Origin: Candidatus Omnitrophota bacterium
GTDB taxonomy: Bacteria; Omnitrophota; Gorgyraeia; JAFGHF01
DNA: 64,000 nt
NCBI GenBank assembly: GCA_043805735.1
Contig: JAZDHS010000020.1
Span: 9,750-73,749, forward strand
Direction: 5' to 3'
The position numbers are program-made. Shown here piece by piece: positions 18,001-21,000 of the stretch (the first letter of the stretch is position 1; each line of letters begins with the position of its first letter).

Positions 18001-21000
18001 CAAAAGGTGATCGGCTGGTTCCAGGGCCGGATGGAGTTTGGCCCCCGGGCGCTGGGTAATCGTTCGATTTTGGGCGATGCGCGCTCCAGTCAGATGCAGG
18101 AACTGATTAACTTAAAGATTAAATTCCGGGAGAGCTTTCGGCCGTTTGCGCCTTCGGTGCTTGCGGAAAAGGTCGGCGACTACTTCGAGTTTACGGGTGA
18201 AAGCCCGTATATGTTAATGGTCGCGCCGGTGAAAGTTACCCTGCGCAAAAAGGTCAGCCCGGACCAGCAAAACCTCTTTGGCCTGGAAAAACTCGGCGTC
18301 CAACGCTCAAATATACCGGCGGTAACGCATGTCGACTATTCTGCCCGGCTGCACACGGTCAAAAAAAGCGATAACCCGCGTTTCTATCGCCTGATTGAGG
18401 CCTTTTACCGTAAATTTGGCTGTCCGGTAATTATCAATACCTCCTTTAATGTACGCGGTGAGCCTCTAGTCTTGAGCCCGGAACAGGCCTATGCCTGTTT
18501 TATGCGGACTAATATGGACTATTTACTCCTCGATAGCTTTTTACTGGAGAAGAAAGAGCAAAAACCTCTGGATAAGGATATTGACTGGCTCAGGCAGTTT
18601 GAACTCGACTAAGAAAGCTAATGTTAACCCAAAATAACAATCAGGAAAACCAGAAGCGCCAATTACGGCAATTTGGCCTATCCTTAACCTTGGCCTTGGC
18701 GGTGTTGGGTAGCCTCTTTTTTATCCGTCGGCAGCCAGCCGGGCCTTACTTTTTAGGCTTGTCTTTAGCCGCGTTCGTTCTCACCGCTACCGGCGCGCCG
18801 TTACTGCGGCCGGTGCAAAAGTTGTTAACGCTATTTGGCCGAGGTGTGGGCTGGCTGATCACCAACGTGATTTTAATCGGCCTGTTTTATCTTGTGATTA
18901 CCCCGATGGCCCTATTAGGGCGTCTTTGGAAAAAAGGCTTTTTAGACACAAACTGTGACCAAAAGGCAACTACTTACTGGGAAACTAAACCGCCCCGGGA
19001 CCCCTCGTCCCTGGAACAACAATTCTAATCTAAGAGGAATCGTGATGGGAAAGCTGGCTATTTTAAGAGAATTCTGGCAATTTTTACGAGTAAATAAACG
19101 TTGGTGGCTTCTGCCGATCATCATCATGCTGATCCTGTTGGGCGCCTTAATCGTTTTATCGGAAAGCTCCGCGGTAGCCCCCTTTATCTATACGTTATTT
19201 TAGACAAAATTTCCTCAAAACCCCGTATTTTTAAAGCAGTTAAGTGCTACTTCCCATCGTGATTTTTCTGCAATATTTCCTTGACAGAAAACCCCTAAAA
19301 GCTTAAAATAATATATCGTTCGTTTTTAGAACGCTATTCCGTAGCATCCCCCCTAATATAGCAAGAAAGGCCAAATATTTAGTCGATGCCGGCACTAAAA
19401 AGTGAGTTCCTTAAGCCCACTGAACACCTGCGCAGCCTTCAACTCTTAGAAGAGATTTCCAAGGACGCGACTATTTCCCAGCGTAAACTCTCGCTTCGGC
19501 TGGGGACAGCCTTAGGGGTGACCAATGCCTGTCTGAGGAAAATGATCAATAAGGGCCTGGTTAAGGTTAAAGGCATTAATCACAAACGGCTGGCCTATTA
19601 TCTTACCCCCAAGGGTTTGAGCGAAAAGGCCCGGCTGACCTATAACTTCCTGCAACACACCATTCGTTTTTATTCTGCGCTTAAAAACAGCATTACCCAG
19701 ACGTTGAGCGGTCTTTACCAGGATGGCCATAAGCGTATTGTCTGTTATGGGGCCGGAGAGGTCTTGGAGGTGGCGCTGGTCATCTTGGACGAGATGAATC
19801 AGAAGTTTAATGTCCTGGCTATCGTCGATGATGATGCCGCCAAACAGGGGAGAAAGTTATTCGGCATCGCGGTGCAGCACCCGCAGGCAATCGGGGAACT
19901 GCGGCCGGACGCGGTACTGATCACTTCGGTTAAATATAAAGATAAAATTAGGCGTAACTTAAGTAACAGTAAAGAATTGTCAGCGATTAATGTCTATTCG
20001 CTCTAAAGCGAGAACTAAAACGAAAGGAGTTTTTGCACCATGATTCCCTTGTTGGATTTGCGTAAACAGTACCACACGATTAAGGATGAAATTGACCAAC
20101 GTATTGCCGAAATCCTCGAGTCGGGAAATTTTATTCTCGGACCGGAAGTAAAAAAACTCGAGGAGGAAATGGCTCGCTTTTGCCAGGTTAAATATGCCGC
20201 GGGAGTTGCCTCGGGTACCGATGCCCTGGAATTGGCGCTAAGGGCCCTGGGGGTGGGAAGAGGCGACGAGGTCATTACCACGCCGTTTACCTTTATCGCC
20301 ACTACGGAGGCGATTACTCAGGTAGAGGCTAAGGTCGTCTTCGCCGAGATCGACCTGGATACCTACAACATCAACCTTGAACAAATCAAAAAGAAAATCA
20401 CGCCGCGCACCAAAGCGATCATCCCGGTGCATCTTTACGGCTTACCCTGCCAAATCAAAGAAGTGATCGAGATCGCCCGCAGGCATAAGCTTTATGTGAT
20501 TGAGGATTGCGCCCAGGCTATCGGCGCGGAATATCAGGGCCAAAAGGTCGGCTCATTCGGTGACGTGGGCTGTTTTAGTTTCTTTCCCAGCAAAAACTTA
20601 GGTGGATACGGTGACGGCGGCATGGTCGTGACCAATAATGAGAAAATTAATGAGCAGGTGCGGATGCTGCGCGTCCACGGCAGCAAAAATAAGTATTTCC
20701 ACCAGGTGGAAGGCCGCAATAGCCGGTTAGATGAAATTCAGGCCGGAATCCTGAGGATTAAACTCAACCATTTAAATGCCTGGAACGAACAGCGCAGAAA
20801 AAACGCGCGCATTTATACTGAAGCCTTTAAGGCCGCCGGCCTTACGGACAAGATGGCGGTGCCTCAAGAGGTTGAAGGAAGTACGCATGTCTTCCATCTC
20901 TATGTGGTCAGGGTTCCCCGGCGCGATCAACTGCTGGAATTCTTGAAGTCCCAAAGCATCTTCGCTGCCATCCACTATCCCGTACCTTTGCATTTACAGG

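Follow-up and report, generated by a model that had tools for sequence, protein, structure and literature searches.

A conserved promoter, palindrome and winged-helix regulator probably form a self-controlled switch at the head of an Omnitrophota surface-glycan locus

A compact set of promoter, palindrome and regulator gene probably acts as a self-controlled surface-glycan switch in a Candidatus Omnitrophota bacterium. We analyzed 64 kb of its genome (hereafter the window; GenBank assembly GCA_043805735.1, contig JAZDHS010000020.1, positions 9,750 to 73,749 of the forward strand), a very large surface-glycan locus in which all long open reading frames (ORFs) lie on the plus strand; positions below are those of the window. 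A 182-nt intergenic gap of 36% GC on that strand (19204-19385) carries a promoter and a palindrome and leads into a 206-amino-acid (aa) regulator gene (19386-20006, plus strand) whose product joins a winged helix through a long helix to a Rossmann-like domain. We read the set as a switch because it recurs at the heads of sugar-coat gene clusters in many uncultured bacteria. In the fuller reading, which we hold with reasonable but qualified confidence, the regulator is a dimeric repressor acting at the start of its own operon, modulated by a nucleotide or a nucleoside diphosphate (NDP)-sugar.

The promoter is very likely real. Its -35 hexamer TTGACA (19281-19286) and -10 hexamer TAAAAT (19304-19309), both on the plus strand and 17 nt apart, match the sigma70 consensus at 11 of 12 positions and form the top promoter-like site between 12 and 30 kb, with transcription predicted to start near 19316. 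TTGACA-N17-TAWAAT occurs once in the window, both strands counted, against 0.03 occurrences expected from shuffles. Scanning one genome per species, we obtained 32 related loci, 23 of them Omnitrophota-type orthologues with proteins 52-74% identical; the upstream region was available for 22 of these, which together with the window make 23 loci. Twenty of the 22 orthologous upstream regions carry TTGACA, a 17-nt spacer (18 nt in one locus) and TAAAAT, TATAAT or TAGAAT, and the -35 hexamer is exact in 21 of the 23 loci. Across 427 kb (the window plus L001-L023, both strands), TTGACA-N16-18-TAnAAT occurs 21 times, always at this module and never outside it, compared with 1.2 sites expected from base composition. 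The first-pass annotation had reported both the size of the gap and TTGACA-N17-TAAAAT at 19281-19309, which read directly in the window sequence. The near-consensus promoter it described is conserved in 21 of 23 loci even though the intergenic DNA around promoter and palindrome has diverged beyond alignment among orthologous loci.

A conserved palindrome marks the candidate operator. The annotation that described the promoter gap overlooked this GTTC-N7-GAAC element, and with it the Rex-like architecture of the regulator. CGTTC-N7-GAACG (19317-19333; core GTTC-N7-GAAC at 19318-19332) begins 8 nt after the -10 hexamer, overlaps the predicted transcription start and is present as a single exact copy in the window. 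The core stands 6-8 nt after the -10 hexamer in the window and in 22 of 22 orthologous loci, and these loci hold only 2 other copies versus about 6 expected. We extended the tally to distant homologues (27-42% identity) gathered from the genome scan and contig look-ups, leaving out L028, whose sequence is masked. Exact cores lie within 300 nt upstream of the homologue in candidate division WWE3 (L030), of a 110-aa short form in Thioalkalivibrio (L031) and of a 119-aa short form in Omnitrophota (L032). Two tandem exact copies each lie within that distance in L033 and L037, and an exact copy is found in L034 and L036, where chance would supply about 0.005 copies per 300-nt region. Near-copies accompany L025 and L039 (GTTC-N7-GAAA) and the Myxococcota homologues L026/L027 (GTTT-N7-AAAC). 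The order of -35, 17-nt spacer, -10 and palindrome is itself repeated in L030, L032 and L026/L027.

The palindrome is likely to be the operator of this protein. We infer binding from two patterns: palindrome and winged-helix gene co-occur across lineages, and the residues expected to face DNA (Q32, R33, N47, Y71 and T74) do not vary between the two main clades. Together these point to the palindrome as the cognate operator of short and long forms alike. The half-sites of GTTC-N7-GAAC are 11 bp apart, centre to centre, a separation that places both on one face of the DNA and would suit a dimer contacting successive major grooves, as MarR-family proteins generally do.

Searches beyond the module returned few further sites. 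Allowing one mismatch in CGTTC-N7-GAACG added one site in the window, which lies in a coding region and is at chance level; with that site alone to build on, we rejected a local regulon of further window operators. A metagenome scan for the exact 18-mer TCGTTCATTTTTAGAACG returned 39 contigs, six with a preceding promoter-like site; the regulator follows in five of the six, and glycan genes but no regulator in the sixth (L043). The remaining 33 show neither a promoter-like site nor a regulator match. Since the collection is large and several contexts repeat, these look like chance matches, and the scan says little about a wider regulon. On L043, a metagenome contig read on its reverse strand, a weaker promoter (TTGACA-N17-CAAAAT) and an exact operator sit about 170 nt from the contig end and 15 nt upstream of a B12/radical-SAM (S-adenosylmethionine) gene, followed by a family 4 glycosyltransferase (GT4) gene, with no regulator within 9 kb. 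L043 is thus a candidate target regulated in trans.

Other features flank the promoter and operator. A T-rich element ending in TTTCC (TTTTCTGCAATATTTCC; 19264-19280, plus strand) adjoins the -35 hexamer and is kept as TTTTCC(N1-2) in most orthologous loci; it could be an UP-element-like sequence or a second protein-binding site. An imperfect direct repeat with 78% identity places TTTTAGACAAAATTTCCT (19198-19215) and TTTTCTGCAATATTTCCT (19264-19281) 66 nt apart, the second copy abutting the -35 hexamer. Leader lengths vary: only 3 nt separate the palindrome from the start codon in L013, L015, L019, L021, L022 and others, which have no Shine-Dalgarno sequence, so that the predicted leader is about 18-20 nt and nearly absent, while that of the window is roughly 70 nt.

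The module stands where an operon head would be expected. The start codon of the next gene, a DegT aminotransferase, lies 33 nt past the regulator stop, and we found no terminator-like site on the plus strand at 19386-20100. Synteny places the regulator at the junction of a conserved upstream nucleotide-sugar block and a variable downstream glycan block, the layout expected of a promoter serving a variable, glycan-specific operon. The proposal that this gap is an operon boundary gains from the same arrangement, with promoter and regulator sitting together between the two blocks. In L005, the full promoter-operator module (6500-6562) lies 3.4 kb 5' of the regulator, with three inserted genes between them (6605-10000), which indicates that the module heads a multi-gene operon. 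The first inserted gene is sulfate adenylyltransferase-like, as judged from its N-terminal sequence alone. L002 has a second regulator copy in the same glycan locus (14505-15107, 64% identical to the window protein) that comes with neither a promoter nor a palindrome, so autonomy does not extend to every copy.

The regulator begins with a MarR-like winged helix-turn-helix. This domain (residues 13-73; 19422-19604, plus strand) has three helices (13-26, 32-39 and 43-55) and a beta-hairpin wing (59-73). Pfam HTH_24 matches residues 18-60 (E 4.5e-9) and NCBIfam TIGR04176 (MarR_EPS) matches residues 17-105 over model positions 6-98 of 105 (E 9.1e-21), in agreement with the first-pass annotation of a MarR_EPS-like N-terminus, though the score of 73.9 bits falls under the cutoff of 88. 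The winged helix and the helix that follows are homologous to MarR_EPS, both kinds of protein occur in polysaccharide loci, and the short MarR_EPS-like homologues L031 and L032 carry the same GTTC-N7-GAAC upstream. The regulator departs from that family in its 206 aa, as against a single domain of about 105 aa, and in its extra domain of about 90 residues. Context differs as well: MarR_EPS is described from exopolysaccharide loci with exosortase/PEP-CTERM systems, whereas Pfam scans of the window ORFs returned neither exosortase nor PEP-CTERM families. The literature searched contains no characterised MarR_EPS member. Autorepressors of the MarR family (MarR, MepR, MexR, HcaR, FabT) share the winged-helix fold and a palindromic site overlapping their own promoter. 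Classical MarR proteins, however, dimerise through N- and C-terminal helices and hold ligand at the interface of the dimer and the DNA-binding lobe; here the sensor would be a separate, appended domain.

A long helix and a Rossmann-like domain complete the protein. The 38-residue helix (residues 75-112; 19608-19721, plus strand) links the two domains, is the C-terminal element of the short homologues and, on the structure model, is a probable dimerisation helix. The Rossmann-like domain (residues 117-205; 19734-20000, plus strand) has a Gly-rich loop after beta-1, Y121-G-A-G-E125 (19746-19760), and an acidic run at the end of beta-2, D148-D-D150 (19827-19835). Within these elements Y121, G122, G124, D148, D149 and K153 are invariant across clades, and the loop and acidic residues occupy canonical nucleotide-binding positions. 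A first structure model built from 30 close homologues was good for the C-domain only (N-terminal predicted local distance difference test score, pLDDT, 30-57). It was superseded by a monomer model from a 62-sequence, two-clade alignment (pLDDT 89.8; predicted template modelling score, pTM, 0.72). The C-terminal Rossmann-like domain on which the first-pass annotation had staked its reading is modelled confidently as beta-alpha-beta.

Structure and profile comparisons relate the C-domain to accessory domains of glycan enzymes. Searched against the PDB with Foldseek, the second model returned full-length Rex repressors at the top (3wg9, 1.7e-6, about 214 columns), MarR proteins on the N-domain and 3nkl, a WbpM-type dehydratase N-terminal domain, on the C-domain (E 4.7e-5, root-mean-square deviation (rmsd) 2.9 A, about 100 columns). 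The first model had matched WbaP (8t53, E 2.3e-4) and the C-domains of KijD1, TcaB9 and MtmC. A family profile aligned by hhalign to residues 165-234 of a PF13727 + Polysacc_synt_2 protein in L033, a PglF/WbpM-like neighbour of a homologue (probability 93.4%, E 2.4e-7), with the motif GAGE...VDDD..K.G common to the family and the PF13727 region. These matches uphold the kinship proposed earlier with the CoA-binding domain of sugar transferases, PF13727 ('CoA_binding_3'). The same fold occurs in WbaP 8t53, 3nkl and the PglF/WbpM dehydratases, and the motif GAG-E...(V/I)DDD..K.G is shared, as the phmmer alignment to 3nkl displays. There, membrane enzymes carry PF13727 as an accessory domain, whereas here a PF13727-like domain is fused to the DNA-binding domain of a soluble protein. 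PF13727-like sensors are described in our sources so far only as accessory domains of glycan enzymes. Pfam Methyltransf_14 (PF08484) also matches residues 97-196 above its gathering score (29.5 versus 23.5 bits; profile positions 51-149 of 160), in line with the Foldseek matches to TcaB9, KijD1 and MtmC, but the regulator has neither the SAM-binding methyltransferase domain nor the zinc domain of those enzymes, its only other domain being the winged helix. NCBIfam adds weak matches with Rex and with the N-terminal domain found in acetyltransferases of the NeuD/PglB type.

The family is large and mostly two-domain. A word-indexed search returned 1,527 relatives, and an exhaustive profile search returned 124 clusters (50% identity) at E <=1e-30 and 1,978 at E <=1e-10, most of the top matches being 190-230 aa long and spanning both domains. 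Short stand-alone relatives of 110-119 aa also exist (L029, L031, L032). Source names include "winged helix-turn-helix transcriptional regulator", "MarR family" and the misleading "FlaA1/EpsC-like NDP-sugar epimerase". Among 82 family members, 66-69 match Pfam MarR/MarR_2, 16 match Methyltransf_14 and four match CoA_binding.

We propose that the regulator represses its own operon. A strong, constitutive-type sigma70 promoter would head the operon, with a one-component regulator as first gene and a long, variable glycan set behind it. The regulator would dimerise, probably through the long central helix, the Rossmann-like domain or both, and the two winged helices of the dimer would sit on the half-sites of the palindrome core. 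Because the operator overlaps the predicted transcription start, binding would repress rather than activate the operon, and because the regulator is the first gene, the circuit would be autoregulatory. The arrangement resembles sigma70 promoters with an overlapping repressor operator, in that hexamers at 17 +/- 1 spacing and an inverted repeat over the predicted start are both conserved. The Rossmann-like C-domain would serve as sensor, a nucleotide or nucleotide-sugar reporting precursor supply and shifting affinity for DNA, as NADH does in Rex. By analogy, then, the regulator would work like a Rex- or MarR-type one-component repressor while being no member of Rex and falling under the TIGR04176 cutoff.

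Relatives of the sensor domain suggest what it may bind. The Methyltransf_14 domain of TcaB9 and KijD1 anchors a dTDP-sugar, the N-domain of PglD holds an NDP-sugar and the Rex domain binds NAD(H). Since relatives thus bind uridine nucleotides, UDP- or dTDP-sugars or NAD(H), a nucleotide or nucleotide-sugar would be the most likely signal, an assignment we make tentatively and hold at a little under an even chance; NAD(P)H is the main alternative. The first genes of the operon, going by their Pfam families, resemble the WbpB/WbpE/WbpD steps that modify UDP-GlcNAcA, and we speculate that a UDP-sugar input would be physiologically sensible given such genes. In nano differential scanning fluorimetry thermal shifts of WbaP, the PF13727 domain gained stability with UMP, UDP and UTP and lost it with UDP-Gal; it also forms most of the dimer interface and was proposed by the authors as an allosteric sensor (PMC10942596).

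Several observations weigh against this model. The palindrome is absent from the searched upstream regions of L024, L029, L035 and L038. We applied sigma70 hexamer rules, which may not be those of Omnitrophota. No terminator-like site was found on the plus strand at 19028-19385, so read-through from upstream genes may also feed the operon. In the sensor, the third glycine of GxGxxG is missing, and the Gly-rich loop is degenerate in L026-L028 and L030, so ligand binding may not be universal among distant homologues. The PF13727 Pfam hidden Markov model (HMM) does not match the protein even at E up to 10. Inter-domain geometry differs from that of Rex (template modelling (TM) score 0.33-0.36, rmsd 12-17 A), with a 38-residue linker helix here. 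Finally, the literature searched holds no report of a transcription start site, DNA binding or a ligand for any family member, nor any characterisation of the family, its operator or its architecture.

A Rex-type redox sensor would keep the same promoter and operator and change the ligand. On this view NAD(P)H/NAD(P)+ would occupy the Rossmann-like domain, and glycan synthesis would follow redox state instead of nucleotide-sugar supply. Rex repressors (T. aquaticus 1xcb/3ikt, RSP 3wg9, B. subtilis 2vt2) share the domain order and a length of about 200-210 aa, and they supply the mechanism by analogy: a dimer on a promoter palindrome, released or tightened by a ligand of the Rossmann domain. 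They are also the best full-length structural matches, at about 1e-6. Sequence adds weak NCBIfam Rex matches (E 1e-3), a Rex chain matched by the family profile (E 0.013) and the four of 82 members that match Pfam CoA_binding, the family to which the weak Rex/NeuD matches point; NAD-binding domains typically combine a GxG loop with an acidic residue after beta-2. We nevertheless judge redox sensing unlikely. Rex HMM scores reach only 17-18 bits against cutoffs of 126-226, the operator is unlike the Rex box TTGTGAA-W4-TTCACAA (PMC2883068), and sequence affinity is greater to PF13727 and Methyltransf_14, binders of NDP-sugars or uridine nucleotides. The two superpose badly (rmsd about 14 A), a final beta-strand (202-205) stands in the model where Rex has its swapped C-terminal helix, and the gene occurs strictly in glycan loci. 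Membership in Rex itself we rejected on the scores, the operator and the geometry.

Equally little weight goes to a C-domain that serves only for dimerisation or as a scaffold, without small-molecule input. Such a protein would act as a constitutive autorepressor fixing expression at one level, or its activity would depend on how abundant it is or on partner proteins. The large share of the WbaP dimer interface contributed by its PF13727 domain (PMC10942596) fits such a role, as do the 110-119-aa homologues that keep the same operator without any C-domain and the degenerate loop of some distant homologues. Yet the six invariant loop, acidic and lysine residues are kept between clades only about 30% identical, and they lie at nucleotide-binding positions and not at an obvious interface. 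The long helix, moreover, already offers a plausible dimer interface in the short forms.

The palindrome could instead act as an RNA hairpin in the 5' untranslated region or as the target of another factor, which we consider improbable. In many loci it lies within the predicted 5' leader, 3-20 nt from the start codon; in L008 the flanking pair has changed symmetrically from C...G to T...A; and a terminator-like hairpin is scored at the site when the minus strand is read. The four core pairs, however, are invariant, the flanking C-G no longer pairs in L004 and L006, and the stem is merely 4-5 bp around a 7-nt loop. The leader (19310-19385) folds no more stably than shuffles (z = -0.65), and there is no credible Rfam match in 18900-20200, the sole hit, sR44, scoring 20 bits where the gathering score is 45; on the fold and the Rfam result we rejected an RNA element in the leader. 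A terminator was likewise rejected, since the site scores on the minus strand only and no minus-strand gene is there for it to serve. Across distant lineages the motif tracks the winged-helix gene at varying distance from the start codon, as fits a cognate protein-DNA pair. A chance promoter match in AT-rich intergenic DNA has next to no likelihood: promoter-like sites in 12-30 kb total 25 versus 25.0 in shuffles and the gap is AT-rich, but the rarity of the exact pattern and its fixed position across the loci effectively refute it.

The regulator is set between two blocks of sugar genes. The first-pass annotation called its gap the only sizeable one in the locus, which does not hold: two gaps exceed it, one of 254 nt (754-1007) and one of 236 nt (12155-12390), and others measure 121, 108 and 99 nt. 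From the regulator gap to the window end 44 kb downstream, none exceeds 45 nt. The gap is flanked by a 52-aa DUF5989 ORF (19045-19203; Pfam E 1.8e-25) and the regulator ORF. Upstream, Pfam identifies DnaJ, VanZ, DUF1015, two GGDEF proteins, an LptD-like protein and the nucleotide-sugar block, which comprises two UDP-glucose/GDP-mannose-type dehydrogenases, a nucleotidyl transferase, a 3,5-epimerase and several epimerases/dehydratases of the short-chain dehydrogenase/reductase (SDR) type. The block ends in a trio directly 5' of the promoter gap (16795-19203): a 605-aa carbamoyltransferase, a 135-aa SxtJ-like protein and the 52-aa DUF5989 protein. The trio also precedes the regulator in L001, L002, L003 and L020 (DUF5989 in L020 lying under the tblastn threshold), and its retention suggests that the glycan is carbamoylated. 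Two adjacent GGDEF diguanylate cyclases, one with GAF (4680-7366), lie 5' of the LptD-like gene and the nucleotide-sugar block and could provide a cyclic di-GMP input to envelope or glycan genes.

Downstream, a glycan-biosynthesis array runs from 20040 to 63559 on the plus strand. Its genes are co-directional and are presumed to be transcribed together from this promoter. After the regulator come the DegT aminotransferase, a GFO/IDH/MocA oxidoreductase, a 567-aa protein without Pfam match and a hexapeptide acetyltransferase. The 567-aa ORF (22217-23920), between the WbpB-like oxidoreductase and the acetyltransferase, occupies the same position in L001 with 50% identity. By Pfam, the rest of the array holds GT4 and family 2 (GT2) glycosyltransferases, many methyltransferases, a UDP-GlcNAc 2-epimerase, PMT_2 proteins, two Wzx-type flippases, B12/radical-SAM enzymes and two AsnB-like amidotransferases. 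The flippases lie at 25716-27173 and 57621-59120, and the AsnB-like and B12/radical-SAM genes are duplicated; the array may thus be two tandem glycan clusters, possibly under one promoter. Pfam scans of these glycan-locus ORFs returned no phosphoglycosyl transferase containing PF13727.

Distant homologues occupy comparable positions. In the distant clade the regulator heads glycan sets with NeuB, SDR dehydratases, DegT and glycosyltransferases, and a NusG paralogue, a PF13727-containing dehydratase or both often precede it. A conserved stretch of some 35 nt, GTCAGGTGCG-CCCTGTGACTGACAGGGCCAAGGTGT, in which CCCTGT/ACAGGG could form a hairpin, lies between the NusG paralogue and the regulator (L033 5790-5840, L034 5790-5835 and equivalent regions of L036 and L037). 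It has no Rfam match and could be a recruitment site for the NusG paralogue. The Myxococcota homologues L026, L027 and L028 have in common a long conserved leader between palindrome and gene. Three copies of the Acido-Lenti-1 RNA motif (RF01687, 44-47 bits) lie upstream of the homologue in L026, at 5-50, 76-121 (minus strand) and 203-248.

The wider family may share this circuit. On a broader reading that we offer as possible but doubtful, the winged helix-Rossmann proteins and their short TIGR04176-like relatives are a widespread, unstudied family of glycan-locus repressors with a shared operator, spanning Omnitrophota, Gemmatimonadota-type bacteria, candidate phylum WWE3 and Gammaproteobacteria. 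The long forms would then be the first transcription factors to read the uridine-nucleotide/NDP-sugar pool through a PF13727-type domain, the type proposed as an allosteric regulator of initiating phosphoglycosyl transferases; the literature searched contains no transcription factor that senses nucleotide-sugars in this way. If this is true, transcription and the first membrane step of glycan assembly would answer to the same metabolite.

For uncultured phyla, Omnitrophota among them, little is known of the switches that control large surface-glycan operons. The module offers a compact, testable switch made of a near-consensus promoter expected to be active in E. coli, an operator of 15 bp and a regulator of 206 aa, and it could also serve as a nucleotide-sugar-responsive genetic part. 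The operator prediction covers a family of thousands, including short forms like the annotated but uncharacterised MarR_EPS, and so provides a tool for regulon prediction. Should the sensor, like the WbaP domain, bind UMP, UDP or UDP-sugars, one type of domain would connect the transcriptional control of glycan synthesis with its control at the enzyme level.

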